IMG/VR virus record: IMGVR_UViG_3300019927_000044
Span: 3,331-67,330 of that record
Source of the DNA: a virus
Reading direction: 5' to 3' (one strand)
Length of the DNA: 64,000 nt
Translations under genes and position numbers: made by a program
The notes under the pieces: model-generated
Seen by the model: the letters and a program-made list of their open reading frames with translations, nothing else
Told to the model about the DNA's origin: nothing
Databases searched by the model: none
Part shown: in pieces, positions 38,970 to 63,205 of the stretch
Layout: every line of letters starts with the position of its first letter
Position numbering within the stretch: position 1 is the stretch's first letter

Positions 38970-39566
38970 ATGACGGTGCCAGAACACCAGTTGGATAGAA
39001 GTGAAGGGAACGGTAGTAGTGCTGGTATTGATGATAAGTACGACGGAACCGAATACCAGTCAAAAGACAAACGTAGTGATACAAAGACGACATTTTACGA
39101 ACATGATATTGACTCACTTGAGGTCAGTCAGCGGCGAAAGCGGCAGTTAAAGCGTTCACTACGTCGACAGGAAGGTGAAGATTTCGGTGAAGGGACGACC
39201 AAAGACCGAAATTACCGCAGTCGGAAAAAGCAAAACCGTGAAGAATGGCGACGACGCATTGTCTTGACTTATGCATCGCAGGCAGAGCTAACTGATAGGC
39301 AGAAAGAGCGGTGTGTCCATTGGATGATGGATGTGCTTGAAATGACTTCATTTGGACCCTATTCGAAGGAGAAAATAGCCCTCGGTGTTGTTAACGTCGT
39401 CGGAAATAGTGAAGGCCGCATGCTTGAGGATGAAGAACTGTTTCAGGACCTGATGCGTGCGGCTGAAATAACGTTGGACGACAATGAGACACCAGACCAT
39501 GACACAATGGGCCGATTACGTGGTTTGGTACGTGACCGTATCCCAAGTCAAAAACTCGACGGATAA
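38970..39566 (+). CDS. TFB-like (single cyclin-fold) transcription factor
   Basis: TTF...KRSLRRQ...YASQAELTDRQKERC...YSKEKIALG parallels the TFB linker and first cyclin repeat; no Zn ribbon. Confidence 0.55.
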   Translation: MTVPEHQLDRSEGNGSSAGIDDKYDGTEYQSKDKRSDTKTTFYEHDIDSLEVSQRRKRQLKRSLRRQEGEDFGEGTTKDRNYRSRKKQNREEWRRRIVLTYASQAELTDRQKERCVHWMMDVLEMTSFGPYSKEKIALGVVNVVGNSEGRMLEDEELFQDLMRAAEITLDDNETPDHDTMGRLRGLVRDRIPSQKLDG

Positions 39567-39629
39567 TTTGTCAGTACGTTCCAGTGTGGAGAAGGCATCT
39601 TTGATGCTTGAACCACATGGGTCACTCTA

Positions 39630-40598
39630 TTGGGACCAGAGTGGCTGCCCATACTCGGCCATACCGTTTTTGATACTATGACTAACCTACGAGAACGAGT
39701 TGTTGATACGATACCAGACGACGTAGAGTTGTTCGAGCAAAACGGCGATGTGTATGGTCGGGACGAGCATGGGGAATTTATTTTAGACCCGCTTCGAGGT
39801 TCTGACGAGCCAGTTGAGGGCCGCTGTGGTGCGGTCTGTAAATTTACAATGGAGCGATATGGGCAGACCCGATACTGCACTGCAATGCCCGAATCTACGT
39901 TTGTAGATGATGGGTCAGACTTTTGCAGAAACCACAAATCGAGGGAAGCACTAATGGAACGAGCATACGAACTATTTGAACACGGTTACTTCGCACAGAA
40001 TTACGTCAATTTCGCACAGAAGCTTGATGCGGCAAAGTTTCTGTTTGCTGTAGAAATGGTTGGTGGGCTATTTGAAATGAGTACCCACGAATTTGAACTG
40101 CACGAAGAGCGTCGAAATATTGACACGAGTGATAGCAACCTTATTAACGAAGATTCGGTTGCTGTCGACCTTCCGCTTCCGACACAGAAAACGTTGGCAT
40201 TTCAGGCTAACGAACTGTGGACGGCGGCGCTAAAAGAGGTCATGACGCAGAATATGCAGGAAGCCATCTTTACAGACGGCATGGCTACTGAAACGATTTC
40301 TCAGACTGCTGATATGGAGGGGAAGATTACTGATACGAAAACAGAGTCGGTAGAACATCACCTCCATCTACCACTTTCTCGTGTTGCGAAAGATATCAAA
40401 AACCATCTTGAGAATGGTGGCGTTACTATCGATGACGACGATGGTGCTGGCGTGACGTTTGAGCAGCGTGAGTACACGCTGAACGTCGGGCCAGAAGATA
40501 ATGATGCAGAGGTCGATGATGTTGGAGAAGTCGCTTCAGACCTTACTGAGAAGCTGCAATCGGGTGCTGAGGAGATTGAGGTGGAGATTGATGGCTAA
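39630..40598 (+). CDS. terS: Terminase small subunit (probable)
   Basis: GRCGAVC...YC...FCRNH Cys/His motif; position before TerL; start probably MTNLRE. Confidence 0.6.
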   Translation: MGPEWLPILGHTVFDTMTNLRERVVDTIPDDVELFEQNGDVYGRDEHGEFILDPLRGSDEPVEGRCGAVCKFTMERYGQTRYCTAMPESTFVDDGSDFCRNHKSREALMERAYELFEHGYFAQNYVNFAQKLDAAKFLFAVEMVGGLFEMSTHEFELHEERRNIDTSDSNLINEDSVAVDLPLPTQKTLAFQANELWTAALKEVMTQNMQEAIFTDGMATETISQTADMEGKITDTKTESVEHHLHLPLSRVAKDIKNHLENGGVTIDDDDGAGVTFEQREYTLNVGPEDNDAEVDDVGEVASDLTEKLQSGAEEIEVEIDG

Positions 40599-40776
40599 TA
40601 GGGAAGATATTGTTGCGGCTGAATGGAACGATGCTGATGCAAGTGACCATCTTCCACAGCACCCAGACGACGTGAGTGAGCTATGGGATGCTGATAAAAT
40701 GGCGATTGTCAATTACGAAGATGGTCGACGTACGGGCGTTGTAACTGCTGAATATCCCATTTCGGTGAGACGATAA
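40591..40776 (+). CDS. Small hypothetical protein (61 aa)
   Basis: Coupled to TerL. Confidence 0.55.
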   Translation: MANREDIVAAEWNDADASDHLPQHPDDVSELWDADKMAIVNYEDGRRTGVVTAEYPISVRR

Positions 40777-42656
40777 TGTACGACGGTATGCCCGAGGAAC
40801 TTCGTGAACTACTCCCTCACGACATTCGTCTTTATATGCGAAATTTGTGGGTTCATCCCAACGACCCAACACGAAGTTACGATTTTTATGATGACGTTGG
40901 TCCAGCAGAAGATGAAGACGATGAAGAAGGGCAGTTTCTTCACTATCTTGCTGACGAAGATGGACCACTTGTTCCGAAAAATTGGGGCGATGTAGTTGTT
41001 CTTAATTTCGCTCGTGGGTGTCTAAAAACAACGACGGCGACTGCGGCTGCTGACTGGGGCGTGAGCCAGTTCCCCATGATTGAAGTTGACATTACTGCAC
41101 CGCGACAAGAGCAGTTCGGTGAAGTAATGGACAGATTTAAGGGGGCCGTCAAAAACAGCGGCATGGAAAAGCTACGGACGAAAGACAATATTAGTCACCA
41201 GAAGTTCGAGCGCGTACTTGAAGATGATAGCGGTGATACAATTAACGTCGAAGCTGACGTGAAGGCACGTTCTGCGTGGGGTAGCGGTGACGCACTTCGT
41301 GGACTGCACGGCCACTTCGGTATTATTGACGAGTTTCAGGACGTTGACGAATCGATGTTCTCAACGTTCCTTGAGGCAGTCGACCAGTCTGTTCCGCAAG
41401 TTCCGTATTTCCCGACGATTTTCATTATTGGAACGCCGAAGATGGCCAATTCGTTCTTCCATGACCTTTGGTCAATGTCGGACCAAAAGACGTGGAAACC
41501 GTACGAAGATAAAGATGGTGGCGAATGGGTCGAGCAAGACGAGCCAGACGAATTTATCCCACCCGAGCTTGCTGAACGGCGCGAGGAACTGCACGAAGAA
41601 GCAGATGAGTATATTGAATATTTGCATGGCGTTGCGAGAGAGGCTTACAATGAATGGCAGTCGCGTGATGATGCGCCACGAGATGTAGCTATTCCAGACG
41701 ACCTACAATCGATTGTTGCAGAAATCCAGAGCAAGCGTGAGGCTGCATCGTCTATTGAAGGTTATACTGTTACTGGCTGGCACATCGACCAGTATGCGTC
41801 CCCACTGCACGATGATGCAAAGATAGAATTTAAGCGCCAAAAATATACCGAAAAGAAGTTTAAAAACGAGGTGCTGGCAGAGTTTTACACGCCAGAAAAC
41901 GACCTGCTTGCCGACACGCACGTTAATGATGCATTTATTGACGACGCTGGCTTCACAAACAGACGGCAGTATGATGATAGCACTGTCGTGATGGGCGTTG
42001 ACTGGGGTGGTGGTAGTTCCGAAGATGCGTCAGATACTGTTATTGTCGTTGGTGAGCAAATCGGTGACGATGAGAGTGAGCGAATTGTAGTTCGGGATAT
42101 CGAATTCCTTGACCCAGACCTCAATAAGCAAGACGAATTGGACGAAGTTGAACAGCGCATACGTGACTATGAGGTTGACCGCATTGCGGTGGACGAGGGG
42201 TACGGCGCAAAGCAGCGTGAAGACCTGCAAGAAGGGAATAACATCTGGAACGATGATGGATGGGAGTCTGTATGTGGTATAATTTACGGCAACATCAAAG
42301 ATAAGGAAAAGCCGAAGTTTAGTGATTCAAGCTTTACTAACTCCGCATACTGTACTGTTGCCCGAACACACATGATTGAATCGATGGTCGACTACTTCAA
42401 AGATGGGCGGATTGAGATTCCCGCTGCGGATATGGATAACAACCGTGACGGGATGAAACAACAACTTATTGACCATTTGACTGCCCCGTACACTGATAGG
42501 ACAGAAACCAGTGGTGGGAAAAAGAAACTAAAAGTGATGGCTGACAGAAACGATGACGCGTTTCAGGCCTTCACGTATATGTACATCGCTGCTAAGAAAT
42601 TTGGCAGCACGAGAACGTTGACGAAAATTGGCAGCCATAATCGAACTGGATACTAA
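40776..42656 (+). CDS. terL: Terminase large subunit
   Basis: FARGCLKTT Walker A, GIIDEFQD Walker B, IGTPK, MGVDWG and NDDA nuclease motifs. Confidence 0.92.
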   Translation: MYDGMPEELRELLPHDIRLYMRNLWVHPNDPTRSYDFYDDVGPAEDEDDEEGQFLHYLADEDGPLVPKNWGDVVVLNFARGCLKTTTATAAADWGVSQFPMIEVDITAPRQEQFGEVMDRFKGAVKNSGMEKLRTKDNISHQKFERVLEDDSGDTINVEADVKARSAWGSGDALRGLHGHFGIIDEFQDVDESMFSTFLEAVDQSVPQVPYFPTIFIIGTPKMANSFFHDLWSMSDQKTWKPYEDKDGGEWVEQDEPDEFIPPELAERREELHEEADEYIEYLHGVAREAYNEWQSRDDAPRDVAIPDDLQSIVAEIQSKREAASSIEGYTVTGWHIDQYASPLHDDAKIEFKRQKYTEKKFKNEVLAEFYTPENDLLADTHVNDAFIDDAGFTNRRQYDDSTVVMGVDWGGGSSEDASDTVIVVGEQIGDDESERIVVRDIEFLDPDLNKQDELDEVEQRIRDYEVDRIAVDEGYGAKQREDLQEGNNIWNDDGWESVCGIIYGNIKDKEKPKFSDSSFTNSAYCTVARTHMIESMVDYFKDGRIEIPAADMDNNRDGMKQQLIDHLTAPYTDRTETSGGKKKLKVMADRNDDAFQAFTYMYIAAKKFGSTRTLTKIGSHNRTGY

Positions 42657-44332
42657 TGACAGAAGAATTTGATATTGGTGTCAGTGCAGAAACTGACGCT
42701 ACGACATCGTTTGAACTTGGACGTGTAGCAACACATCAGTATTCCGAACGCACTGCGGAGCGGACTGCTGGTGTTGGAACCGAAGAGGGTGACAGTGCCG
42801 ATGAAATTGACCCACGTCGGCTGATGGGCGACCCGACTGTTAATAAAATACGTTGGCTATATCGCACATCGCTGGCACAGACACTTGTCAATAAACCAGT
42901 CGATGATGCATTTAAAAATGGCTACGAAATAGAACACGACGGTAATCGTGACATTCAGTCGCTACTTGATGGTCTTGACTGGGAACAGCACTACAAAGAC
43001 GTGAAGAAAAAGGCACGTCGTGATGGATTTGCACTATCGTTCTTTGTTCTTGAGGATAATAGCGATGGTGTGTGGGAGGACCCAATGAAAGACGACGTGA
43101 CTGTTAGTTCTGTCAAAAAGCTTGAAATAGAGACACTTGACAGTCTTGCAACGTTTAAGGCCAGTCACGACGCTATTCCTGCGGGTGCTGATGCTGACCC
43201 ACTTGAAGGTCTTCCACACGACGACTATGAGATTCGTCCAACTGGTATTGTGATGGACACTGACCCCACATCTGAAACATACAAAGAACCACTTGGTTAT
43301 CTCATTGGTCCGAAAGACTGGATTGAGGAGCATGACCCGTCTGGTGTGAAATTCTATCATCGCAATCGCTTTATCCACCACGTTGAGAACCGTACCGTGG
43401 ATGGCGATATTAGCGATGATAGTCTGGGTCGCTGGGAAGGTGACAGCGTACTTGTCTCTTCGTATCATCTTCTTGACGGTATGAAGAAAGGTAACTGGGC
43501 GACAATGCAGACAGTATTCCGTTATGCTGCAAAGCTATACCACGTTGCCTTACCCGAAGACGCTGACGAAGACGACTGGGAGCAGGCCAATGAGAACATG
43601 CAGAATCTCAATGCCAAGTCAGAGCTTGTTACGCCAGCTGGCTACGAAATTGATGATTTCCAGACTGATGGTCAACTGGACCCAGAGCCGTACTTTGACG
43701 TGCTATTCGAGCAAGTCTGTGCGTCTAATGAGATGACCAAATCTGTTTTGTTTGGCACACAAAGCGGTACTGTCAGTGGGTCTGAAACTGATATCAAAAA
43801 TTACTTTAACAAAGTCGAGCGGATGCGTCATGGGTCTATTGACAGAGACATGCATAAATTTGTTAACAAGTCGATACAACTTGTTGACAATCGTGCAAGT
43901 AGCGATTACGACCTTGATTTTACAATTGAGTGGGGACCACTATTTCAGCTATCGCAGCTTGATAGGGCAGAGCAGCTATCCCGAACGATGGGGACGCTGG
44001 CCTCGGCTATCAATAACTTCATCCTGACGCCAGAAGAAGCCCGTGAGATTCTGAAAGAGGAGTGGGCTGACGTTGACATTGACTGGTCTGATAGTTTCAG
44101 TGAAGAAGAAACTGACTTCCTCAAAACGCTGAACATTGCCCAGCTTGGTACTGAGGCTGCATTACCAGACGGTGAGGGTGGCAGCGACGGAAATCCCGCT
44201 GTCGGGCAGAATGGTGGGGGCAACCCTCGCGGAAATACTATATCATCCGAACAACCAACGACTGATAACTTAAGCGATGAAGACAAAAGTGATATAGCAC
44301 GGAGAGTTGTGGAGATGATAGAAAATGAGTGA
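42656..44332 (+). CDS. Portal protein (DUF1073-like)
   Basis: Follows TerL; LVNKPVDDAFKNG, LFGTQSG...SETDIKNYF motifs. Confidence 0.88.
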   Translation: MTEEFDIGVSAETDATTSFELGRVATHQYSERTAERTAGVGTEEGDSADEIDPRRLMGDPTVNKIRWLYRTSLAQTLVNKPVDDAFKNGYEIEHDGNRDIQSLLDGLDWEQHYKDVKKKARRDGFALSFFVLEDNSDGVWEDPMKDDVTVSSVKKLEIETLDSLATFKASHDAIPAGADADPLEGLPHDDYEIRPTGIVMDTDPTSETYKEPLGYLIGPKDWIEEHDPSGVKFYHRNRFIHHVENRTVDGDISDDSLGRWEGDSVLVSSYHLLDGMKKGNWATMQTVFRYAAKLYHVALPEDADEDDWEQANENMQNLNAKSELVTPAGYEIDDFQTDGQLDPEPYFDVLFEQVCASNEMTKSVLFGTQSGTVSGSETDIKNYFNKVERMRHGSIDRDMHKFVNKSIQLVDNRASSDYDLDFTIEWGPLFQLSQLDRAEQLSRTMGTLASAINNFILTPEEAREILKEEWADVDIDWSDSFSEEETDFLKTLNIAQLGTEAALPDGEGGSDGNPAVGQNGGGNPRGNTISSEQPTTDNLSDEDKSDIARRVVEMIENE

Positions 44333-45092
44333 ATGTCCAAGTTGTGACAAAACTTTTCAAACTGATTCAGGAATGAAATCACACCACACGCAAGTACATA
44401 ATGAAAGTTTATGTATGATAGAAGTGGGCTGTGCAAATTGTAATGAACTATTTTCTGCCCACGAATATAAGATAGAACGTTCAGATAATTTGTTTTGTTC
44501 TCAAGAATGTCAGTCAGAATATAAAAAAGACAATGAATATTTACACCCTCCCACATATGAGGGTAAAGAACATCCACAATTTGATTCTACTAAAATAAAT
44601 TGTTGTTGATGTGATAAAATATATTTACAACATGATTATAAAATAGAACAAAATGAAAACAATTTTTGTTCTGTCGGTTGTCGTGCAGAATGGCAATCTG
44701 AAAACGTTGTAGGAGAATCACACCACCAATGGAGTGGTGGTAAAAATAAATATAACAAAGGTTGGGAAAGAAAAAGAATTAATGCAATAGTCCACTCTGA
44801 TGGAAGATGTAAATCGTGTGGAATATCAGAAAAAGAACATATTAATAAAAATGGTTTTGGTCTTCATGTTCATCATATAATACCATTAAAAGAGTTTGAT
44901 GACCAAAACAGAGCACATCAGTTAGATAATCTTATGCCCTTATGTATTAATTGCCATATGAGAGTAGAAAATTCTGGCGGGATGGAGCAAGGTCAGCAAA
45001 CGGCAAGTGAGCAGCCAGAAAATGACGGACTTTCGCGCCGAGACATTGACAGAATTGCAGAACGAACGGCAGAAATAATTCAAAACGAATGA
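44325..45092 (+). pseudogene. Zn-finger HNH endonuclease interrupted by an in-frame TGA (44607-09), fused to a duplicate portal C-terminus
   Basis: Frame continues after TGA to GRCKSCG...HVHHIIP...NLMPLCINCH, then SEQPENDGLS...EIIQNE*. Confidence 0.85.
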
Positions 45093-45148
45093 CACAGAAT
45101 GTTACATTAATATTAAAATGATAACAATTATTTGTCATTACGGTATAT

Positions 45149-46002: not shown

Positions 46003-46064
46003 AAAAAAATATTTGACAGAATATATTACCTGTCAGTACGATATAAACGAGACAGGTTGCTTCT

Positions 46065-47588
46065 ATGACTGACATTGTACGAAGTCACGACACTGGAATT
46101 AACGCGCTTGCAGACGCGGGTGGTGTCGTAGAGAGCGCGGATGGTGAAAGTGTCTCATTTGACTGGGACGAGCAACACGTCGTTACTGTTGATGCGCCAG
46201 CCGACCTGAAAGGTGCATTTGATACCGACAAGTTCTACAAAATTACCGATGCCGTTGTTGCGAGGCCGATTAAACAGCGGTATATTAAAGATGGCGAACT
46301 TGTCACAATGGTCAAAGCGGCTGACGAGCTTCGAAAAGCTGCATGGTCGTTTGACAATTCACCATACACCATCGGCCATCCTAACACTGGGATGGTCAAG
46401 GATGTGAACGACATCCACGGGTTCTGGCGCAACGTTCAGTACGACACTGACGATGCAGAAATGGTTGCGAATCTTTATATTCCAGTCACAGACGACGAGG
46501 CTGTTGACTATATTGAAGAAAATAAAGACGTATCGGTTGGATTTTACAACCGAGAGGCCGCTATTGACAGTTACGATGGCGACCTTGGGCCTCTTGTCGA
46601 AGATACCAGCGATGTAGATGGCGTTCAGACAGATATTCTTGGCAATCATATCGCTGGTGTTGAGCGCGGACGATGCAGTGGTGAAGATGGATGCGGACTT
46701 GATGACGCCTCTCATGGTGTCATCAAACAGACTGATTCTATGACAGACGAGTATTCTATCGTTGGTGATAGTTCTGTCGACTTTACGACAGACTATACTG
46801 ACGACGAGGGCCAGTATTTTGCAGTTGCGCCCGACGAGAATCCAGACGACGAACCAAAATTCCCTGTCAATAGTTGTTCTGATGTGGAAGACGCATGGCA
46901 CTTTGCTATTCGAGAGCGAGGTGACATTGACATTTCATTTGGAACGCTAAAAGAGCGCATTCAGTCGAGAGCGAGCAATCTTGACTGTGATGTACCATCC
47001 GAAGACGAATCGGATGATGGGGAAACTGACAATTCTTGTGGTTGCGGTACGACACAAACAATGGACGAAGACTTTAAGCTTCCACAAGCCAGTATCGACG
47101 CGCTGGCTGAGGAGAACGATAAGGTTGCACAGCTAATTGAAGAACGAGACGAATATGAGTCTGCGCTTGACGAGCGGCGTGAGCGTATTGACGACGCGTT
47201 CGATTCTGCCGAAAACTTTGACATCGACCTTGACGAAGATGAGTGTCGGTGCGATGGTGTTAAGCAGATTGTTGAAGACCTTGACGAGCAGATTGACGAG
47301 GTTGAAGACCTTCGAGACGAACTTTCCGAATATCGGGAAGACGAAATCGAAGAGAAGCTTGACGAACTTGAAGACTTTGGTGCTGACCGTGAAGAGATGA
47401 AGGAAATGGCCGACGAGGCCGAAAACCCTATTTCGGAACTGGACAGCGAGCTTGAGCGGTGGGAGACTATCGCTGAAAACGTTGACGACAGCACCGTGAA
47501 GAATACTGAGTCTGGTACCGAGTCTACACCAGACACGACAGTTGAATCCAGTGGCACGCGAAGTTACGGTCGCGGTCACGGGGCATAA
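46065..47588 (+). CDS. Prohead protease (DUF2213-like) fused to an acidic coiled-coil scaffold
   Basis: PYTIGHP...VSVGF...GNHIAGVERGRCS; coiled-coil C-terminus. Confidence 0.85.
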   Translation: MTDIVRSHDTGINALADAGGVVESADGESVSFDWDEQHVVTVDAPADLKGAFDTDKFYKITDAVVARPIKQRYIKDGELVTMVKAADELRKAAWSFDNSPYTIGHPNTGMVKDVNDIHGFWRNVQYDTDDAEMVANLYIPVTDDEAVDYIEENKDVSVGFYNREAAIDSYDGDLGPLVEDTSDVDGVQTDILGNHIAGVERGRCSGEDGCGLDDASHGVIKQTDSMTDEYSIVGDSSVDFTTDYTDDEGQYFAVAPDENPDDEPKFPVNSCSDVEDAWHFAIRERGDIDISFGTLKERIQSRASNLDCDVPSEDESDDGETDNSCGCGTTQTMDEDFKLPQASIDALAEENDKVAQLIEERDEYESALDERRERIDDAFDSAENFDIDLDEDECRCDGVKQIVEDLDEQIDEVEDLRDELSEYREDEIEEKLDELEDFGADREEMKEMADEAENPISELDSELERWETIAENVDDSTVKNTESGTESTPDTTVESSGTRSYGRGHGA

Positions 47589-47637
47589 TCTGTCAGTACG
47601 ATTAATACAGACGGAGACATAACGGAGATACTATATT

Positions 47638-48204: not shown

Positions 48205-48211
48205 TTAACTA

Positions 48212-53312: not shown

Positions 53313-53323
53313 ATTAATAACCA

Positions 53324-53890: not shown

Positions 53891-54108
53891 AAGAGTTAGC
53901 CCATTCTGAAATGGGGAAAGAAATATATTCCCTACATGATAATGGGCGAAAATTATTTACATCACCGAAAGATTGTACACCAATTCAGCGATATGTTTAT
54001 GTGATGGCAAAAGACCATCACACTGACGACCCAGACGCGGGAAGCCCAAATCCGCACGGTATGCAGCACGGGCAAGACATTAAGAACCACACAAGTAAAT
54101 TTGTGTGA
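53881..54108 (+). CDS. -1 frameshift extension of the tail assembly chaperone
   Basis: Heptamer AAAAAAC 53881-87; the -1 frame reads KKLKELAHSEMGKEIY... to 54108. Confidence 0.75.
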   Translation, partial: KKLKELAHSEMGKEIYSLHDNGRKLFTSPKDCTPIQRYVYVMAKDHHTDDPDAGSPNPHGMQHGQDIKNHTSKFV

Positions 54109-54159
54109 CTTTTTTTGTAGCCATTTCTAATCTGTCAGTACGTTCTACACAGAATAGGT

Positions 54160-55944: not shown

Positions 55945-56423
55945 TGCCAACAATACAAATAGTTGACGATACTGGAACTGTCACAGAAACAGAAGTTATT
56001 AGTCGTGGTGCTGCAATATTAACTGATGTTCAGGCAGTAAATGTTGGGACTGAAATACCAACATTTGAAGACATTAATGACGAAAATCCAGACGTGTTTG
56101 TTCCAGCAGTTACACGACGAGTAGAATATGATAACAAGGGCGTTATGTCGAGCATTACGACAGATTGTGGTGAAACTGAGAACCGTCGTGAAGCTGATGA
56201 GAAGCCTAATATAACGCTTGAAGGCATTATCACCGAGTCGCAAATCCCCGCCGCGAAAAGTCTCAAAAGTCTGAATAAGATAATTCTTATCAGTGATATT
56301 GAACGAGGTGAAATGGTCATTGAAAGGGTAACTATTAGTCAAGATACAGACTTGCTTTCATACATTACAAATGGTAACGAAGAACTGGCATTTAGTTTCC
56401 AAATGCAGCTTAAACAGCCATGA
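55944..56423 (+). CDS. Tail tube initiator-like protein
   Basis: Synteny after TMP. Confidence 0.5.
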   Translation: MPTIQIVDDTGTVTETEVISRGAAILTDVQAVNVGTEIPTFEDINDENPDVFVPAVTRRVEYDNKGVMSSITTDCGETENRREADEKPNITLEGIITESQIPAAKSLKSLNKIILISDIERGEMVIERVTISQDTDLLSYITNGNEELAFSFQMQLKQP

Positions 56424-58018
56424 TACCTGATGATTCAGACTTTGCTGGAATAGATGCAGAGTCGCTTCCAGAAGTAGATTACGACTTTTCATGTAAGTCA
56501 GATACACCACCAGCACAAGCTGACGTGGCTGTCGACTTGTTTAAAAAAGACGATGAAGGTGGAGAGGTGAGTGGCCCATTTGCACCCGTTGCTGGCACAT
56601 TTGACGTTTCTGGTGAGTTTATTCGCCTTCCAGTGGTCGAAGCAGAAACGTGGGAAAATAAAGACGGCGCGTCTGATTTGATTCGTACCAGTCGTGTAAA
56701 AGTACCGATGATATGGGACGGTGTCGAAATACATGAGCTTGTCGGTGCAGATAGAGAAGATGAAGATGCTGGGTTCGATTTGTGTCGTATTAGCTACAGA
56801 GATAGAGATACTGGGCGCTGGCAAGTTCAGCAGTTTGGCTACGTCGCATCAATTGGCCCAGCCAGTGAAAATGGTGTGCTAAAGTTTTACACGTATGACC
56901 CAGCCGACTTCATGCGTGAGATACCTGTTACAAAAACATACGACGAACCTACTGCATCACAAGTCGCCAGTTTTGTCGCATTTGATGACGAATATGGACT
57001 GGATTTTAATAATCCTGTTCCAATTCTTGACACAATTGTTACAACGCCAGCAAGAAACTTTGAAGAAGCCGCCCGTGAAGATATAGAGGTCGATATTGTC
57101 GGTCAATATGAAAACTTAAATAACAACGTGTATGGCTGGGCTGATGAAAATATACCTATTATTGGAGACTTCTTACTTTCAGGTAGGGATGCATTAAACG
57201 TTAGTGAAGCAGAAGAATGGGCAGATGATGCACTTCATAACGGTGGACATAAACATTTTCGTCGTAATAGACACAATCTTGTCGATGTAATGAATTGGCT
57301 TACCGACCGCATTGGTGGGTCATGGTTCCTACAGCCAGAAGATAAAGGTGTAACACTTATTGTGAACAACGGTGGCGATGTTGACGATTCGATGGCACGT
57401 CGGTCGTTTAAAACGCAAAGTGTTGACCCATCACAATATGATTATATTCAGGGAACAAACCATAGCGATGCTATAGCAATAGACAATAATGCTATAGAAG
57501 ACATTAAACCTATAAATAAACTAACGCTAAATGGTGAAAGTGCAGATTCATTCTTAGGCCTTAATGCTGATAGGGACATATTTGACGGTCCATTAGGTGC
57601 CCCTCGTGGACATACAAACAAGTATCCTCACGTTGAAGTGACGTATCCGCCGCTACTTAAGCGGGCTGGCGGTGTTGAGTTGGGACCAAAACGTATTGAA
57701 TCTGATGCAACAACGCTTGCTGAAGCCAGAGAGGAGGCTATACAGTCATTTATTTCACAACACGAAGACAATACTGAAGGAAATATCATAATTTACGGAA
57801 AACCAACTATCCGACCGTATGATTATCTTTCCGCAAAGCCAGTTTGTAATGATGTGTTTGATATTGATGCTAACCCTATTCAATATGAAATTAATAGCGT
57901 CAAACATCATGTCAAAAACGATGAACCATACCAGACAGAATTAGGTGTCAGTATAGCATTAAATGAAGATATCGTGCGAGAAAATGTTGTAGACGATTAT
58001 CTTGACACAAGAAAATGA
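56420..58018 (+). CDS. Baseplate hub protein (probable)
   Basis: Synteny; GKPTIRPYD C-terminal pattern. Confidence 0.6.
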   Translation: MIPDDSDFAGIDAESLPEVDYDFSCKSDTPPAQADVAVDLFKKDDEGGEVSGPFAPVAGTFDVSGEFIRLPVVEAETWENKDGASDLIRTSRVKVPMIWDGVEIHELVGADREDEDAGFDLCRISYRDRDTGRWQVQQFGYVASIGPASENGVLKFYTYDPADFMREIPVTKTYDEPTASQVASFVAFDDEYGLDFNNPVPILDTIVTTPARNFEEAAREDIEVDIVGQYENLNNNVYGWADENIPIIGDFLLSGRDALNVSEAEEWADDALHNGGHKHFRRNRHNLVDVMNWLTDRIGGSWFLQPEDKGVTLIVNNGGDVDDSMARRSFKTQSVDPSQYDYIQGTNHSDAIAIDNNAIEDIKPINKLTLNGESADSFLGLNADRDIFDGPLGAPRGHTNKYPHVEVTYPPLLKRAGGVELGPKRIESDATTLAEAREEAIQSFISQHEDNTEGNIIIYGKPTIRPYDYLSAKPVCNDVFDIDANPIQYEINSVKHHVKNDEPYQTELGVSIALNEDIVRENVVDDYLDTRK

Positions 58019-58830
58019 GTAATAATTCTAACCCATATGACCTTGATGGTGGACAAATTCGGAGCATACTATCCGAGGCTGTTGACAGAGCGACAGTACT
58101 CGACGTGATTCCAGAAGCCCATGCCGTTCGTGTCAATCCTCGCGGTGATAATTCGCCACTTGTCGCACCAGTCGTGACACCAATGTACGGGTCTGTCACG
58201 CTGCCACGTAAAGGTTCTCGTGTGACGCTTGTCTATATTACTGACAACGTACCCATTTGTGTCGGTGGTATTTATCTTGCTGACGGTGAAGAACCGCCTA
58301 CCGCAAAAGATGGAGATATTATACTTGGCAACGGTACTGGGTCACAAATCAAAATAGCGGATGACGGACATATTGAAATTGTTACAGACGGTACTGAGCG
58401 CGTTGATATTGACAATAAAAGTGCCAGTGTCTATCTCTCGAATACACAAACAATCCCGTCACAATCGGACCCAACGAAGGTAAAATTTGACACTGTTGAG
58501 GAAGATAAAGAAAGTCTCTGGGACCAAGATAATTATCAAATGGTCGCTAAAGCGAGCGGGTTGCATAAAATAAACACATCAGTCGCAATCCTTTCGGCTG
58601 GACAAAATAAACTGTATGAGATAAGCATTTTCGTAAATGATGTAGAAGTAGATAAAATGTATCGACAATCAGCAACAAACGAACCGCTTTCACTACATGC
58701 GTCAACTTCTGAACTACTTGAGGCTGGCGATACAGTTGACGTTCGAGTGAAAAACCAATCTGGTAGTAGTAGAGATATAGAAGGTGATTCAGTGACAACA
58801 GAATTTGACATACGGAGGACTGGTATCTAA
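58015..58830 (+). CDS. Baseplate spike (gpV-like) with C-terminal extension
   Basis: OB-fold-like N-terminus LPRKGSRVTLVY. Confidence 0.7.
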   Translation: MSNNSNPYDLDGGQIRSILSEAVDRATVLDVIPEAHAVRVNPRGDNSPLVAPVVTPMYGSVTLPRKGSRVTLVYITDNVPICVGGIYLADGEEPPTAKDGDIILGNGTGSQIKIADDGHIEIVTDGTERVDIDNKSASVYLSNTQTIPSQSDPTKVKFDTVEEDKESLWDQDNYQMVAKASGLHKINTSVAILSAGQNKLYEISIFVNDVEVDKMYRQSATNEPLSLHASTSELLEAGDTVDVRVKNQSGSSRDIEGDSVTTEFDIRRTGI

Positions 58831-59165
58831 TGGTTGAGTATCCGACTGACGCTGAACTAAATGGGCAGAAAGACATCTTTATTGATGAGGCAGGTGATAT
58901 TTCTGTAATTAGCGGTATTGACCAGCTTGCACAATCAGTTGGTATAGATATATTTGATGAAACGCAAGACTTTACTGGGTCTAAATTAACAGGCCTGACA
59001 ATTGGCCGACTTGAGGCCCAAATCCGCGATGGCCTTGATAATGACCCGCAGCTTGACGATATTGTCAGCGTTACAATACGAAGTTTTGATGAGGAGGCTG
59101 GCAATGTATTTATTGAAGTTGTAACAACTGCAAACAACGAATTTACACTTCCGATAGAACTATGA
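58830..59165 (+). CDS. Baseplate wedge protein (gp25-like)
   Basis: 111 aa before baseplate J. Confidence 0.65.
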   Translation: MVEYPTDAELNGQKDIFIDEAGDISVISGIDQLAQSVGIDIFDETQDFTGSKLTGLTIGRLEAQIRDGLDNDPQLDDIVSVTIRSFDEEAGNVFIEVVTTANNEFTLPIEL

Positions 59166-60994
59166 CAATAATTAACGGACAATACGAAAAATTGACGGAA
59201 CAGGAGATTACTGACGCACTTGAGCAGGAACTACAGGACCAGTTTGGTGCTGATATTGACCTGACAGAATCGTCAGTTTTCAGCACACTTATTAGTACGC
59301 TGGCGGCAGTGCTGGCAGAAAATCAAGAAAAATCGCTACAAGATGTATACCAGAGCGCGTTCCTTGATACGGCCACTGGTATTGACCTTGAACGCATTGT
59401 TGCACTTATCGGTCTACAGCGCCGTCAAGCAACGCACGCTACTGGCGTTCAGCGATTCCTCGCAAGTGGAAAGGTGACACAGGACTATGTTATTCAACGC
59501 GGGACAACTGTCCAAACTGGCGGTGGAGAGCCAATAGAATTTGAAACGACTGATGTTACCATTCTTAAACTGATTGATAGTTTTGAAAACGGTAATCTTG
59601 ATGAATACAATGGTAATACTACTAACGCGTCTACACTATCGGTTGCTAATGCGCCAGAAGGGTCAAATGTCCTTGAACTTGATGCAACTGAAGATGCAAG
59701 TATCTATCAAGAGAACACTGTGCTAAAACGCGGCAGTGTAATGCATTGCTACGTACGGCCAGATGCAGGCACCGTTCCGATTATGCAGTTTGGCATTCAG
59801 CAAAGTGATGTGTCGAACTATTATCAGGTCGCTGTAGACGAGGCAAACGATACTATCTCACTTGAGCGGTTTGATAGCGGTTCTCTGGCCTCGACTATCG
59901 ATAGCACTAACGTGACCATTTCCAGCAACACATGGTACGAAATCGAAGTGGACTGGAACATCACGGATAATATCAGCGTCACGCTGTATGACATCGACGG
60001 TAACGAACTTGCTACCTTAGGCGGCATTGACGATACATATATTCAAGGGCTGTGTGGCTTTAAAAGTGGCGATAACAATGGCACAAAACAGTTCGACTGG
60101 TACACTACCAGCGAAGTGAGTGTCAATATTCGGGCCATTGAGGGTGGCAGTGCTGGCAATGTCGGCCCTAATAGCATTACGTCTATTCCGTCACCGCCCG
60201 CTGGCGTCAACGCAACGACAAATCTTTACTCGACTGGCGACCTTGACCTATATGACCTTGAAGGAACGGCCTTTATTGTCGGTCGTGACAGGGAAGAAGA
60301 TGACGAACTACGCGAACGTGCTGAAGAGGCCGTTGCGGGTGGTGGTACTTCAACTCACGACGCCCTTGCCGCAGCACTAATTAACGATATTATTGACGTT
60401 ATTTCCGTCACAATTTACGAAAATAAAACATCAATAGATAATAGTGGCAGTGGCGGACTACCGCCTCACTCATTTGAAGCTGTTGTGTACGGTGGTGACG
60501 AAACTGAAATTGCCAGAACAATATTCGATAATAAAGCAATAACGTCAAATGATATCGGCGGTGTTCGTGGAACAAAAGTTACGGAAACAGTACAGTCAAA
60601 TGTAAATAACGACGAACGCCAGATATCATTTACTCGACCGACAAAGCAGACTGTTGATATTACAATTAATATTGTTACGTCCGACTCATACATTGGTGAC
60701 AATAATTTGAAAGACCTTATTGTCAAATATATTGGTGGTACGTTGTCTGACAGTACGAATGCATTAGGTCTTAGTGTTGGAAAAGACGTTCGTATTGACC
60801 AGCTTCGTGATATCATTGTTGGTGAAGATACTGGTGTTATTGGATTTGACCAGTCTGTTGACGGGACTCCCATTAGTACAACACCAAGTACTACAACAGT
60901 CAGTGGTCTTCAAATCGTTGATATTGGAGAAAATGAAGTTGCAAAAACTGACGCAACTGACGGAAGTATTACGATTAACAAAACTGAGCTATAA
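59162..60994 (+). CDS. Baseplate J-like protein with an internal beta-sandwich insertion
   Basis: FLDTATGIDLERI; GSAGNV; GRDREEDDELRER; PPHSFEAVVYGG. Confidence 0.9.
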   Translation: MTIINGQYEKLTEQEITDALEQELQDQFGADIDLTESSVFSTLISTLAAVLAENQEKSLQDVYQSAFLDTATGIDLERIVALIGLQRRQATHATGVQRFLASGKVTQDYVIQRGTTVQTGGGEPIEFETTDVTILKLIDSFENGNLDEYNGNTTNASTLSVANAPEGSNVLELDATEDASIYQENTVLKRGSVMHCYVRPDAGTVPIMQFGIQQSDVSNYYQVAVDEANDTISLERFDSGSLASTIDSTNVTISSNTWYEIEVDWNITDNISVTLYDIDGNELATLGGIDDTYIQGLCGFKSGDNNGTKQFDWYTTSEVSVNIRAIEGGSAGNVGPNSITSIPSPPAGVNATTNLYSTGDLDLYDLEGTAFIVGRDREEDDELRERAEEAVAGGGTSTHDALAAALINDIIDVISVTIYENKTSIDNSGSGGLPPHSFEAVVYGGDETEIARTIFDNKAITSNDIGGVRGTKVTETVQSNVNNDERQISFTRPTKQTVDITINIVTSDSYIGDNNLKDLIVKYIGGTLSDSTNALGLSVGKDVRIDQLRDIIVGEDTGVIGFDQSVDGTPISTTPSTTTVSGLQIVDIGENEVAKTDATDGSITINKTEL

Positions 60995-61017
60995 TCTGTC
61001 AGTATGGTTAATATAGA

Positions 61018-62475
61018 ATGACACGGCAGACAACATTGCATAATTTTAACGTTCCTGAAACTGGCGATGCAGATTACGCCGATACGTTTGCGCAGTATTT
61101 CGACTCTGTTGATAATGCGATAGAGATACGAGATACTGAAAATAATATATCAAATTATGAACCACAAGAAGGGGCTAAATTCACTGCTACAGATAGTGGC
61201 GTTATTTATATTGGTGACGGTAGCTCATGGACACAAATTACATCAACAGGCATTAATCCAAACTTTGGAAATGTAACTGCTGATTCGGTCAATACAAAGG
61301 AAATAAATAACGTCAAAACACCGCTGCCCAAAAACGGGGGCGCTGGCATAAACGACGCTGTATCCGCAGGAACAAAAATCGAACTACAATCTGGCGTTTA
61401 CGAACTTAATTCACCAATACAGATAGATGCTGACGGACTCTCTCTCATCGGGCAAGGAGTTGAATCGTCCGAGGCTGGAGATAATGACACCAACATAACG
61501 GTGCTACGTAAGGTTCACAACGGGCCGATGGTCGAAACGACCTCTAATGAAGTTAGAAGTGTTACCATCAAGGGAGTCGCGTTCGACGGCCAAAAATCGA
61601 CATATAGCGGGCGTGGCGTGGATGCTGGCGAGGTGCCAAATAATTGGAAGATTCAAGACTGTGTGTTTTACGATATTGCCAGTGAACCAATATATGCGGA
61701 TATGTTATACAATAGTTGGATACAAGACAATTGGTTTAGACGGTGGGGGACATCTGGTAATTCTGACGCAATAAAGATAGATAAGACGGGAAACACGTCT
61801 CCAAGCCATCTAAAAATCACGGGGAATGACTTTCGTGATGGGGACGGAAACAGCCGCGACTGCATCAACGTGGAAACGTGTGATGCGTTAAGGGTGCAAA
61901 ACAATGAGCTAAACCTCCCCGCTCGCCACGCCGTCCGTATCAAAGAGTGTGAAACGCTTTTCCTTTCTGGAAACTACAGCGAGGATGCGGGGGACTCGGG
62001 ATATGTTCTCGGAGTGACGGGCGCAGACAATATTCAGCACGCCACGGTCCACGCAAATCGGGCGAGCCGAGGAGGGACTGGGTATGGTTTTGACTATCGT
62101 AACGTTCGCAATTCTGTTGTAGGAGAGAATCAAGCGTTTAATTTTAATAGTGGCGGGGCGCGAGTTGGAACTGACTGCAAAGATTTCCTGTGGCTTACCA
62201 CAAACGTCGGCAGTGACGTTACGTTCAACTCGCAGGTGTATTATACTCCAAACGTAGTTCGGCAAAGCACTGGAGATATCGTTGTTTTGGACGATAACGG
62301 AGATATAGCGAAAAAAATCACCACCACTGCAAATAAACTTTATCAGGGGGCGGATTATTCAACGTCGAATGTCTCGTTAGATAGAACGTTTGACGCAGAT
62401 AATACAACGGTTAATGAGTTGGCTGATGTTGTCGGGACGATTATATCTGACCTTGGCCTTGATATTGCCCGATAA
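61018..62475 (+). CDS. Tail fibre/spike with pectin-lyase-like beta-helix
   Basis: GAGINDAV...IELQSGVY...LSLIGQG followed by parallel beta-helix repeats. Confidence 0.8.
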   Translation: MTRQTTLHNFNVPETGDADYADTFAQYFDSVDNAIEIRDTENNISNYEPQEGAKFTATDSGVIYIGDGSSWTQITSTGINPNFGNVTADSVNTKEINNVKTPLPKNGGAGINDAVSAGTKIELQSGVYELNSPIQIDADGLSLIGQGVESSEAGDNDTNITVLRKVHNGPMVETTSNEVRSVTIKGVAFDGQKSTYSGRGVDAGEVPNNWKIQDCVFYDIASEPIYADMLYNSWIQDNWFRRWGTSGNSDAIKIDKTGNTSPSHLKITGNDFRDGDGNSRDCINVETCDALRVQNNELNLPARHAVRIKECETLFLSGNYSEDAGDSGYVLGVTGADNIQHATVHANRASRGGTGYGFDYRNVRNSVVGENQAFNFNSGGARVGTDCKDFLWLTTNVGSDVTFNSQVYYTPNVVRQSTGDIVVLDDNGDIAKKITTTANKLYQGADYSTSNVSLDRTFDADNTTVNELADVVGTIISDLGLDIAR

Positions 62476-62522
62476 TGAGAGTGAACATAACAATTTATTC
62501 AAAAATAAATTTATGAAATAAA

Positions 62523-63179
62523 ATGTCTTGGGGTAGTAACAAGTGGGGTGACTATTATTGGGGTATAAATAGCCAATTTAATATTGGTAGAAATATTCGT
62601 ACGGCTGAAAAGAAATGGAACAGCGGTATTGCATTCTCACCACATTCAAATACATATAAACTTTTAGAATCTTTATTATCTGAGGCTGGTCGTATAGATA
62701 ATGATTTAACTGCAATAAACAAAAGTACAAAAATAAATACTGCTTTTGGTGAAGAACTTGAAAAAATTGGAAATCTTGTCAATGTTAATAGGCAAAGTAA
62801 TGAATCTGATGTAAAATATCGGGCACGTATTAAAGCTACATTTCGTGCGGCAACTACCAGTGCGACATTTGACGAATTTGTTCAATTCTCTTCATCAGTT
62901 CTTTCAACAGACGTTAATAATCTTACATTTACGACAAATGTTCCAGAATCAGCAACCATTCGCGTTGGCGCTGACGGTGATGTATATGACAATGCTGACC
63001 TTACGAATCAGCAGATTGTCGACTTACTCGGTCGTGGTGTGCCTGCTGGTCATGAAGTGAACATTGTTGAACGTGGAACATTCCTTCTCAAATCAGACGG
63101 ACAGGCTAACACGGCAGATAATGGGCTAACATCTGACACAATTGATACTGGTGGAACGCTTGCGGCTGACATAATATAA
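62523..63179 (+). CDS. Baseplate wedge protein (gpI-like)
   Basis: GEELEKIGNLVNVNR...DVKYRARIKA...VPAGH. Confidence 0.75.
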   Translation: MSWGSNKWGDYYWGINSQFNIGRNIRTAEKKWNSGIAFSPHSNTYKLLESLLSEAGRIDNDLTAINKSTKINTAFGEELEKIGNLVNVNRQSNESDVKYRARIKATFRAATTSATFDEFVQFSSSVLSTDVNNLTFTTNVPESATIRVGADGDVYDNADLTNQQIVDLLGRGVPAGHEVNIVERGTFLLKSDGQANTADNGLTSDTIDTGGTLAADII

Positions 63180-63205
63180 TCTGTCAGTACGATTGACACA
63201 GAACG

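Follow-up and report, generated by a model that had tools for sequence, protein, structure and literature searches.

The late genes of an uncultivated tailed virus, whose host group is the salt-loving archaea, are headed by the gene for a protein, P0001, that appears to derive from the initiation factor TFB, and they are marked by a repeated intergenic box, TGTCAGTACG. On this basis, we regard the virus as a candidate among archaeal viruses for late switching of the sigma-factor type. The timing of gene expression in archaeal viruses is largely unknown, and the regulators described so far are mostly small repressors. A switch for late genes that would be the counterpart of the phage sigma factors is not known from archaeal viruses.

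Genome organization

The window, which is the whole stretch of DNA that we analyzed, covers 64 kb of a 67.4-kb record, and the temporal classes (early and late) used below were inferred from gene content. The genes of the late arm are as follows.

38970-39566, + strand, P0001, a putative ribbon-less, single-cyclin TFB-derived protein of 198 amino acids (translation, AF2, Foldseek, VIA-align, hhalign)
39678-44332, + strand, first late block (Pfam and PHROGs)
39678-40598, + strand, Cys-rich TerS-like gene of 306 amino acids, adjoining the TerL gene as TerS genes do
40776-42656, + strand, large terminase (Pfam, PHROGs)
42656-44332, + strand, portal (Pfam, PHROGs)
46065-49324, + strand, protease/scaffold, decoration protein and major capsid protein (Pfam DUF2213; synteny and alignment with HATV-2 gp11-13)
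51568-64000, + strand, tail sheath, tube, chaperones, tape measure, baseplate and fibres (PHROGs; synteny with HATV-2)

The first late block shows 40% identity to HATV-2 gp4, and the PHROGs matches in the tail region include tail sheath (3e-58) and baseplate wedge (5e-48). The virus also encodes many Zn-ribbon micro-proteins.

Structure and sequence of P0001

The original prediction described a TFB-like ORF without the Zn ribbon and the second cyclin repeat, and the structural examination bore this out. The AF2 model (pLDDT 82.8, and >95 across residues 85-190) contains a single cyclin box, whose best match is the first repeat of TFIIB/TFB. Every top Foldseek match was TFIIB, with a probability of 0.99 and an rmsd of ~2.6 Å over ~100 residues (for example 1vol_A, 2.6 Å over 102 columns). 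When we aligned the model using VIA-align, the Z-scores were 10.3 to yeast TFIIB (118-224), 9.9 to human TFIIB (105-206) and 9.4 to P. woesei TFB (1108-1203). Cyclins scored equally (Z 10.4), and therefore TFB and cyclins cannot be told apart by their fold alone; it is the colinear profile match, together with the archaeal context, that separates them. In the hhalign comparison of P0001 with a TFB alignment (E 3e-4; with mact 0.05, probability 64% and E 6.6e-5), residues 5-189 were aligned to TFB 57-261, and the match runs colinearly from just past the TFB zinc ribbon via the B-linker into cyclin repeat I. The matched motifs are S..KR.QM.RLRKWQ in P0001 against S.RRK..LKR.LR(R/W)Q in TFB, and HDKGLTTTIDW against D.R..T.TTFY. 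Clusters of TFIIB, some from tailed viruses, were also found as look-alikes of P0001 by protein language model and structure, which we take as a lead only.

Two parts could be assigned, a segment resembling the B-reader strand and B-linker (residues ~33-70) and cyclin repeat I (~83-198). The former was aligned with the TFB region from the B-reader strand to the B-linker helix, with RLRKWQ-like residues and D/T/aromatic/D positions, at an hhalign probability of only 31-64%, and an equivalent of the B-reader helix was not evident in the alignment to TFB. The cyclin box superposes on repeat I of P. woesei TFBc (1AIS/1D3U), human TFIIBc (1VOL) and yeast TFIIB in Pol II complexes (4BBS/7O4I). The profile match to TFB passes through an RLRKWQ motif at the putative B-linker helix and through the GxxSxExV helix of repeat I, and Arg114 aligns with a TFB-invariant Arg. 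Unlike these proteins, P0001 has no Zn ribbon, B-reader helix or second repeat and gives no Pfam TFIIB score, and the identity is ~15%. HMMER with the Pfam TFIIB profile (PF00382) at E up to 10 gave no match in P0001, in 67 relatives or in the six frames of the virus, and P0001 had neither Pfam matches nor PDB sequence matches to TFB.

P0001 contains a single Cys and therefore has no Zn ribbon, and an in-frame stop at 38934-36 rules out an N-terminal extension. Among 85 family proteins only P0049 has an N-terminal Cys cluster, and a search for the PF08271 ribbon across the whole virus yielded matches of just 13 bits, where the cut-off is 29. After a single five-helix box the protein stops, at residue 198; the second cyclin repeat is absent, and therefore P0001 has no BRE-reading HTH. 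Taken together, the fold and the weak profile match support P0001 as a probable diverged TFB fragment, from which the Zn ribbon and cyclin repeat II would have been lost while the B-reader-strand/B-linker segment and cyclin repeat I were kept. Crosslinking of Pyrococcus TFB1 showed DNA contacts of repeat I from -16 to -20 and of the B-linker strand from -4 to -10 (PMC13502027), and contacts with promoter DNA at about -20 to -4 are known for just those parts of TFB that P0001 would have kept.

The late box

The 10-mer TGTCAGTACG occurs in six exact copies in the 64 kb on both strands, compared with ~0.12 expected by arithmetic, and the remainder of the 67.4-kb record contains zero additional copies. 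Allowing at most one mismatch, we found 18 matches; shuffled sequences gave 5.7 on average and 15 at most. Of the exact copies, five are on the + strand and one is on the - strand, and three intergenic copies with one mismatch share the flanks of the exact ones, giving nine sites.

39569-39578, + strand, exact (late box 1), 2 nt past the P0001 stop and with the TerS-like ATG 99 nt on
45133-45142, + strand, variant TGTCATTACG, preceding the 45149/45164 ORF
46031-46040, + strand, exact, 24 nt ahead of the prohead protease/scaffold gene
47584-47611, + strand, full extended element CATAATC-TGTCAGTACG-ATTAAT-ACAGA (exact box at 47591), ahead of the decoration gene and the MCP gene
54133-54142, + strand, exact, with the tape-measure gene 17 nt on and a T7 run upstream
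60997-61006, + strand, variant TGTCAGTATG, with the 61018 gene of the fibre/spike region 11 nt on
63182-63191, + strand, exact, with the tail-fibre gene 63206 (homolog of HATV-2 gp30) 14 nt on
35644-35653, - strand, exact; the search for a downstream ORF gave none convincing
15047-15056, - strand, variant CGTCAGTACG, within the replication arm, 11 nt ahead of a CPxCG Zn-ribbon micro-gene (32 amino acids, ATG at 15035, - strand)

All nine sites are intergenic and co-oriented with the downstream gene, and seven of them stand at the heads of blocks for packaging, head, tail and fibre genes. With a weight matrix built on the extended element (31 nt), eight sites scored 22.8-39.2 bits, while nothing else in the rest of the window reached 12 bits. 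These observations support the box as a real, strand-specific intergenic mark on late operons. It had been predicted ahead of the TerS-like gene (39678), the protease (46065), decoration and MCP (47638/48212), tape-measure (54160), 61018 and tail-fibre (63206) genes and the CPxCG micro-gene, and was found at each of them; the frequent fusion with a TAA stop upstream was confirmed at 39569, 47591, 60997 and 63182 and not at 54133. Sites 45133 and 35644(-) were additional to that list, and the latter possibly serves an antisense or non-coding transcript.

Promoter classes

Early and late genes had been predicted to differ in their promoters, and this contrast was confirmed. The canonical arrangement of TTTTTATA followed after 20-25 nt by ATG was found in ~13 cases, all in the - strand replication arm, and TTTTTATA was absent from promoter positions in the + strand late arm. 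The early class carries cgaTAACTTTTTATA. At the late sites we found no CGAAA-like BRE block, only ATAAT, CTAAT or ATTAT, so that the combination of a CGAAA-type BRE with a TTTAWA-type TATA near -26 is missing there. The description of the late promoters as TATA-less, on the other hand, is doubtful and found no support. An A/T-rich block (ATAAT-C and variants) abuts each box upstream, and a second block (ATTAAT) lies downstream. The end of the upstream block is 22 (60997), 23 (15047), 25 (63182) and 28 nt (54133) from the ATG, which resembles the 20-25 nt between early TATA ends and the ATG. The start codon of 63206 was confirmed by N-terminal homology to HATV-2 gp30 and those of 46065 and 47638 by homology, and the 54160 start is plausible. 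Because of this spacing, the ATAAT block can be read as a weak TATA with the box downstream of it; the box most likely lies between the weak TATA and the start site, which at these four sites would therefore be at most 11-17 nt past the box. The 'GTC' motif of SIRV1/2 is likewise a virus-specific conserved element just past the TATA box of an archaeal virus (PMC5569661), but it is a 3-nt motif of most SIRV promoters, is not class-specific and has no known dedicated factor.

The P0001 gene itself is preceded by a TATA-type promoter box, AACACTTAAGT (38928-38938, + strand), of a third class distinct from the late box. The same box stands ahead of the + strand genes 30780 and 31078 and an RNA at 10923(-), a TATA-type box is conserved 5' of the P0001 homologs in L016 and L017, and CGAAACACTTA is the principal promoter word in HATV-2. 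These patterns are best explained by three or more classes of promoter. The replication arm would use BRE/TATA promoters of the type (cga)aACTTTTTTATA giving leaderless mRNAs, a few genes including P0001 would use the AACACTTAAGT-type TATA, and the packaging, head, tail and fibre genes would use a private late promoter without BRE, in which a weak TATA-like ATAAT block is followed by TGTCAGTACG, by a short stretch of A/T (ATTAAT) and, close to the start site, by ACAGA.

Conservation in related viruses

Homologs of P0001 are HATV-2 gp2, HGTV-1 gp2 (both previously unannotated) and ~80 metagenomic clusters (80 cluster representatives), some with an acidic N-terminal extension. In 10/10 contexts the structural arm begins with a member of this family, and in HGTV-1 the gp2 homolog lies upstream of a separately annotated small terminase. 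Each lineage has its own repeated late box. Boxes stand at matching intergenic places in L011, L015, L016, L017, L028 and L029-31, with variants at the late box 1 position in L016 and L017, and analogous repeated boxes occur in HATV-2 and HGTV-1; the position between the A/T block and the ATG is kept while the sequence has diverged.

L015, TGACTACTAC...ACAGAAAC, 2 copies
L016, AGTCAGTACG and TTCAGTACG
L017, TTTATAAA-N7-TGTGAGTACT
L028, TTTTATAA-N9/10-GTGACTACTAC
L029, CTGTTATACGG-CTTAATACAGAG
HATV-2, ATTACA(A/T)ACG, 4 copies
HGTV-1, CCGACGCACRTTAGA, 3 copies

The element at 47584 has homologs in L029-L031 with identical TTAATA-to-ATG spacing (30 nt) and a variant in L015, and a near-identical counterpart of the 45133 variant was found in L032. 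The distance from the nearest A/T block to the box ranges from ~1 to 20 nt across lineages.

Proposed role of P0001 and alternative explanations

We tentatively favor, at slightly less than an even chance, the explanation that P0001, with the late boxes, is a TFB-derived activator of late transcription. P0001 would be made from its own non-late promoter, directly upstream of the first late box, and would join host TBP and RNA polymerase at the weak late promoters, with its cyclin repeat and linker overlying the box. Late transcription would thereby be turned on, as by phage late sigma factors or activators. Since the Zn ribbon is missing, P0001 probably needs a partner, which may be host TFB/TFE or another viral protein; TFB would probably not be replaced outright. 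That P0001 reads the box or redirects the polymerase is a hypothesis suggested by its position and structure. As in the phage late switches (T4 gp55/gp33, SPO1 gp33/34, lambda Q, P2 Ogr), the putative regulator gene adjoins the late genes, and the late promoters carry a short private box in place of the normal upstream element. The polymerase system is different and there is no homology, so the likeness is an analogy and the activity of P0001 hypothetical. Several observations count against a late switch of this kind. Canonical polymerase recruitment is impossible for a protein without the ribbon, a single fixed geometry of TBP and factor is difficult to reconcile with the variable distance from A/T block to box, and the boxes at 15047 and 35644 are outside the late arm.

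A simpler explanation, which we consider possible though rather unlikely, is that the box is part of a strong virus-specific core promoter used by host TBP/TFB alone, as a conserved block of proximal-promoter or initiator type, comparable to the gamma motif in the HF2 class I repeats. P0001 would then act elsewhere, for example as a dominant-negative TFB decoy on TBP-DNA or on the B-linker site of the polymerase that shuts off or re-weights host transcription; its lack of the ribbon required for polymerase recruitment would fit such a role. The class I and II intergenic repeats of HF2 are experimentally shown promoters in which a TATA at ~-26 is accompanied by a conserved, essential block about the start site, and they showed strong activity when cloned alone before a reporter with no other viral gene (PMC8707807), which counts against the need for a viral factor. 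Like them, the late box is virus-specific, repeated, found only between genes, oriented downstream and conserved in position among relatives, and one of the HF2 repeats, too, drives late genes, in a 35-kb morphogenesis transcript. Their sequence is unrelated, however, and here many late blocks are marked rather than one. Moreover, the late boxes accompany a weak A/T block without BRE, unlike the strong early promoters of the virus, suggesting that help is needed. The P0001 gene invariably heads the late arm, and its stop is followed, 2 nt on, by the first box, as expected for a late regulator, while a shut-off factor would be expected among the early genes.

It is improbable that the box is an operator for a different viral or host regulator, such as a small Zn-ribbon or HTH protein, with P0001 unrelated to it. 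This regulator could be an activator, or an early repressor bound between the TATA and the start site; archaeal repressors typically bind directly past the TATA box (review, PMC5569661), and the virus has its many Zn-ribbon micro-proteins, but no candidate regulator was identified. The partial inverted repeat (T)CTGT...ACAG(A) that flanks the box at five window sites and in L015 and L029 would suit an operator, but it is short and is missing at 39569, 35644 and 15047.

Still less probable is an action as RNA, in which the box would be a 5'-leader or intercistronic hairpin, a processing site or a translation signal of late mRNAs. The box lies 11-37 nt ahead of start codons without Shine-Dalgarno sequences, CUGU and ACAG are able to pair, the pairing is kept via a G-U change at 60997, and both arms are shifted at 46031. 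The predicted hairpins are nevertheless weak and overall no better than shuffles (z -2.2 to +1.2). In addition, the DNA above the A/T block at 47591 and 63182 is G+C-rich; a start above the box would therefore be without TATA there, and the left arm would stay untranscribed.

The least probable alternative, very unlikely in our view, is that P0001 is a packaging accessory acting as the DNA-recognition partner of terminase, since, although its gene is always directly upstream of the TerS-like gene and TerL and some proteins of the cyclin fold, for instance Orc6, are able to bind DNA, HGTV-1 has its own annotated small terminase downstream of gp2, the Cys-rich 306-aa protein adjoins TerL in the present lineage, and there were zero terminase folds in the top 50 structural matches.

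Significance

Copies of initiation factors carried by viruses have been described in the rudiviruses MRV1/ARV3/SSRV1, Asgard wyrdviruses, the halite metagenome virus Ha38 and giant viruses (TFIIB), and poxvirus VITF-3 is stage-specific. Those homologs are recognisable by sequence, the Ha38 TFIIB having been reported to be similar to host TFB and the rest carrying an annotation as TFB/TFIIB homologs, whereas the P0001 family is a truncated, unannotated fragment fixed at the head of the structural arm. The present analysis points to a conserved, previously unannotated and apparently TFB-derived protein family heading late genes, whose occurrence in cultured myoviruses of haloarchaea spans at least two families (HATV-2, HGTV-1). 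For annotation, gp2-type genes can be described as TFB-like and the boxes mark operon boundaries. The candidate factor and the late box of each lineage are a concrete pair for reporter and in vitro transcription methods such as have been used on haloviruses, as in the HF2 bgaH reporter assay.

We also consider a stronger proposal, about which we are more doubtful than about the activator itself, namely that the P0001 family is the specificity subunit of a virus-directed initiation complex, reading the box downstream of a weak TATA and, together with host TBP, polymerase and a ribbon-bearing partner, turning on all late operons. Haloarchaea use multiple TFB paralogs as sigma-like specificity factors, and the finding extends this picture; it also bears on the capacities of the B-linker and cyclin repeat I when the ribbon and repeat II are gone. 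If the stronger proposal is true, the switch would be the first sigma-like temporal switch described in an archaeal virus, and P0001 would be a natural 'split TFB' in which cyclin repeat I is able to confer promoter sequence specificity.

Genome layout and promoter classes

The window covers positions 3331-67330 of the virus record (67,387 bp), which was rated complete by CheckV. The portal of the window is 43.5% identical with that of Haloarcula tailed virus 2 (HATV-2), a myovirus of the Soleiviridae, and the gene order of HATV-2 is matched by the window from the large terminase to the tail fibres. The minus strand carries replication-type genes at about 1-31 kb and the plus strand carries structural genes from 38,970 to the end, and this gene content suggests an early and a late class of genes. 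The early promoters, (cga)aACTTTTTTATA, were found in about 13 copies from 671 to 29,701, all in the minus-strand arm and each 20-25 nt before an ATG. A TATA element at this distance is the geometry of haloarchaeal leaderless promoters. Since no (cga)aACTTTTTTATA stands in promoter position within the late arm of the window, the original prediction was right to contrast early TATA promoters with late genes marked by a box. A third promoter word, AACACTTAAGT, heads the TFB-like ORF P0001 and three other units, and is the same as the main promoter word of HATV-2.

Fold and origin of P0001

38970-39566, plus strand: P0001, 198 aa

P0001 contains a single cysteine, and its ATG is closely preceded by an in-frame stop. 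HMMER assigned no Pfam family to P0001 and gave no Pfam TFIIB hit for 67 relatives, PF00382 was not found in the virus by a six-frame search, and a profile search of PDB sequences returned nothing TFB-like for P0001. An exhaustive search gave 80 cluster representatives of the family, ranging from 125 to 283 aa. The AlphaFold model, with 67 relatives in the alignment, showed a mean pLDDT of 82.8, and above 95 over residues 85-190. When we compared this model with the PDB using Foldseek, as the original prediction had proposed, TFIIB chains led the list (4bbs_M, 4v1n_M, 7o4i_M and 1vol_A) with a probability up to 0.99 and an rmsd of about 2.6 Å over about 100 columns, at E-values of only 0.17-0.5. 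In VIA-align, which is independent of Foldseek, cyclin-fold proteins made up 37 of the 40 top rows, the exceptions being ranks 27 (Rb pocket), 37 and 39. The Z values were 10.4 for cyclin C, 10.3 for yeast TFIIB 118-224, 9.9 for human TFIIB 105-206, 9.6 for Brf1 and 9.4 for P. woesei TFB 1108-1203, and the first cyclin repeat was the aligned part in every TFIIB-family case. The Atlas look-alikes of P0001 were TFIIB clusters, some from tailed viruses, which we treat as a lead only.

We then compared P0001 by hhalign with TFB alignments built from haloarchaeal and methanogen genomes. Residues 52-149 aligned with TFB 109-195 at E-values of 5e-4 to 3e-4, and a greedier setting aligned residues 5-189 with TFB 57-261 (probability 64%, E 6.6e-5), beginning directly after the TFB ribbon. 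The TFB motifs S..KR.QM.RLRKWQ and GRSIEGVA are matched in the family by S.RRK..LKR.LR(R/W)Q and G.YS.E.VA, respectively, and several relatives contain RLRKWQ or RLIRWQ verbatim. Based on the fold, the hhalign results and the motif matches, P0001 is best read as a TFB fragment in which the B-linker region and cyclin repeat I are kept and the ribbon and repeat II are gone. The claim of a TFB-like ORF without the Zn ribbon and the second cyclin repeat is thus borne out by fold, hhalign and the single cysteine, and the likeness is visible only by fold and profile-profile comparison. We consider it quite probable that P0001 derives from TFB.

The P0001 family and its genomic context

The P0001-family gene was the first of the structural arm in 10 of 10 contexts (the window, the related contigs L016, L017/18, L027, L028, L029-31 and L032, HATV-2, and the cultured virus HGTV-1), after diverging HNH or small genes. 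A gap of 100-290 nt separates it from a Cys-rich TerS-like gene, which abuts TerL, and the portal comes next. HATV-2 gp2 is 32% identical with P0001 (E 4e-19) and HGTV-1 gp2 matches the family with an hhalign probability of 99.5%; both are annotated as hypothetical. A small terminase role of the P0001 family is disfavoured, because in HGTV-1 a small terminase is annotated separately, after gp2. Scanning genome contigs with the family alignment revealed no proviral or host copies, and in the metagenomes the scan matched only five short contigs, all from a single lineage.

Many relatives of 205-283 aa (P0020-P0075) have an acidic N-terminal extension, in which the motif (L)D(D/G)YPIDxDYIDV...RADVS recurs, and the extension of one relative, P0049, contains a CxC...CxxC cluster. 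In several lineages, CCCCTCCGCA is conserved about 40-60 nt upstream of the family start codon (window 38900-38909; L016, L017 and L028; CCCCTCCGAA in L032). Stand-alone proteins of about 100-130 aa matching the Pfam TFIIB repeat (E 1e-6 to 1e-15) were found in the haloarchaeal host genomes G001 and G002, which shows that solo cyclin-repeat TFB fragments exist in haloarchaeal cells too:

L175, 953-1261: host solo TFIIB-repeat protein
L173, 884-1270: host solo TFIIB-repeat protein

Copies and placement of the late box

The late box, TGTCAGTACG, has six exact copies, against a calculated expectation of about 0.12 for a 10-mer when both strands of the 64 kb are counted. At one mismatch there were 18 matches, and shuffles gave a mean of 5.7 and a maximum of 15.

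39569, plus strand: exact box, late-arm intergenic gap
46031, plus strand: exact box, late-arm intergenic gap
47591, plus strand: exact box, late-arm intergenic gap
54133, plus strand: exact box, late-arm intergenic gap
63182, plus strand: exact box, late-arm intergenic gap
35644, minus strand: exact box, no convincing ORF found after it
45133, plus strand: one-mismatch box with the same flanks, in a gap
60997, plus strand: one-mismatch box with the same flanks, in a gap
15047, minus strand: one-mismatch box with the same flanks, in a gap

With a 31-nt weight matrix, the late-box sites scored 22.8-39.2 bits and the rest of the window all scored below 12 bits; the 3.4 kb of the record beyond the window contain no box copy. 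The consensus of the extended late element is (c)ATAATC-TGTCAGTACG-aTTaAt-ACAGA. The mapped sites place the box, as had been claimed, before the TerS-like gene, the protease/scaffold gene, the decoration gene with the MCP, the tape-measure gene, the 61018 gene, the tail-fibre gene 63206 and the 32-aa CPxCG micro-gene, and also before a 107-aa ORF. Within the blocks, genes either overlap an adjacent gene or have a Shine-Dalgarno-like sequence, features that are mostly absent from genes that follow a box. The box is likely to be an element of late promoters. The short inverted repeat CTGT...ACAG is found repeatedly at the elements, and a stable RNA hairpin at the box is unsupported, the predicted hairpins being weak (z -2.2 to +1.2).

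Several other features were observed. The stretch 44325-45130 between portal and protease, which precedes the box variant at 45133, has low G+C (35%) and HNH-endonuclease coding sequence, and looks like an inserted homing-endonuclease cassette:

44325-44609: HNH ORF, with more HNH-like motifs downstream of it

At 49307-49416, the final 15 nt or so of the MCP gene (tctgcgctattctaa) recur 78 nt further on, and a Shine-Dalgarno sequence and an ORF for a small membrane protein (ATG 49417) follow directly. A box look-alike with two mismatches, TGCCAGTAC, lies below the matrix threshold at 36318-36326 (plus strand). The plus-strand region 34595-35570 contains four direct repeats of about 40 nt, each a T8 run followed by GGTCGGTGGATATGCGTGACAGTAATATCG:

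34605, plus strand: repeat opening a small ORF, start MRDSNI
34993, plus strand: repeat opening a paralogous small ORF, start MRDSNI
35249, plus strand: repeat, start MSDGNI
35531, plus strand: repeat

At least the first two repeats open such ORFs. The repeat tail, ...GACAGACTTAATACA, has a faint likeness to the late element, and the region may represent tandemly arranged genes of one family that carry promoter or terminator signals of their own.

Probable geometry of the late promoters

The late promoters had been described as TATA-less, but they probably are not. At four sites (60997, 15047, 63182 and 54133) the ATG lies only 11-17 nt past the box, and the distance to the ATG from the end of the A/T block adjoining the box upstream is 22, 23, 25 and 28 nt, respectively, which matches the early TATA-to-ATG range. 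One of the start codons concerned, that of 63206, is confirmed by homology: N-terminal similarity to HATV-2 and L029 proteins fixes it along with those of 46065 and 47638. In the simplest layout, a weak TATA-like block is followed by the box at about -22 to -12, a short A/T block, and ACAGA at or near the start. A start site inside or before the box was rejected for the window virus, in which the DNA upstream of the A/T block at 47591 and 63182 is all G+C-rich. A BRE-like box before the following ATTAAT/ATATAAA block fails as a general layout, because at four sites only 3-10 nt separate that block from the start codon; it is possible at 47591 and HGTV-1 gp3. L017 and L028 have a strong TATA 7-10 nt upstream of the box, so that the box stands between TATA and start there too, with a box-to-TATA spacing that varies between lineages.

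The late box in related viruses

The near-identical 14-kb contig L011 keeps three boxes. The exact 15-mer TAATCTGTCAGTACG matched 14 IMG/VR contigs, among which only L011 has more than one copy and L011 alone is shown to be a relative. A whole-element matrix scan of relatives gave almost no matches; since the box diverges quickly, we compared relatives place by place. In diverged relatives, the box occupies the same intergenic places with a changed sequence:

L016: AGTCAGTACG after the P0001 homolog (57% identical), TTCAGTACG after TerL
L017: TGTGAGTACT
L028 and L027: GTGACTACTAC-type
L015: TGACTACTAC...ACAGAAAC, two copies, before the protease and decoration genes
L029-31 (P0001 homolog 40% identical): CTGTTATACGG-CTTAATACAGAG before the decoration gene
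HATV-2: (C/G)ATTACA(A/T)ACG before gp6, gp21, gp27 and gp30
HGTV-1: CCGACGCACRTTAGA before gp3, gp8 and gp11

The TTAATA-to-ATG spacing before the L029-31 decoration gene is 30 nt, as in the window. Because relatives keep a diverged box at the same places, these sequence comparisons argue that the late element is functional and evolves by lineage.

In most lineages (window, L016, L017, L027, L028, L030 and L032), CC(C)CGACCACACCGTTTTT is conserved 6-15 nt upstream of the TerS-like start codon (window 39655-39677, GGCCATACCGTTTTT), at the end of a long leader beginning at the first late box; the L017 copy, ...CCGTTTT, lies about 75 nt upstream of the ATG. Oligo-T tracts are archaeal termination signals. 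The arrangement could conceivably be one of promoter, leader and terminator that recalls lambda Q-type control, and the word could equally be a translation signal.

A possible link between P0001 and the late box

TFB uses its ribbon to recruit polymerase and its repeat II to read the BRE. Crosslinks of the Pyrococcus protein to promoter DNA lie at -16 to -20 for repeat I (F192) and at -4 to -10 for the B-linker strand (PMC13502027). The retained parts of P0001 would lie over the stretch holding the late box and the A/T-ACAGA tail, and its missing parts would match what late promoters miss, the BRE. A promoter of non-late type precedes P0001, whose stop lies 2 nt ahead of the first box. Because these features of placement and structure cohere, we tentatively propose, as a reading slightly less likely than its negation, that P0001 together with host TBP and polymerase recognises the box and switches on the late genes. 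Against this late-switch role, P0001 is without a ribbon and the box-to-TATA spacing differs from lineage to lineage. A further point against it is that promoter repeats of HF2 drove a reporter when cloned upstream of it by themselves, on a construct lacking any other viral gene (PMC8707807); the box may instead be read by host TBP and TFB alone, with P0001 acting elsewhere. Complex prediction of P0001 80-198 with a haloarchaeal TBP scored 0.01, a value that speaks neither for nor against a complex. No viral TBP (PF00352) was found in the virus, nor a TFB-type Zn ribbon above the cut-off, with only two 13-bit matches.

TFB homologs have been reported in giant viruses. They are also known from rudiviruses and Asgard viruses (bioRxiv 10.1101/2021.07.29.453957; 10.1101/2020.01.16.907410) and from a halite virus genome (10.1101/029934), and poxvirus VITF-3 is a stage-specific TBP/TFIIB-like pair (PMC12917281). 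TFB goes unmentioned in a large study comparing archaeal tailed viruses (PMC8651126). The truncated P0001 family adds a variant to these known viral TFB homologs.
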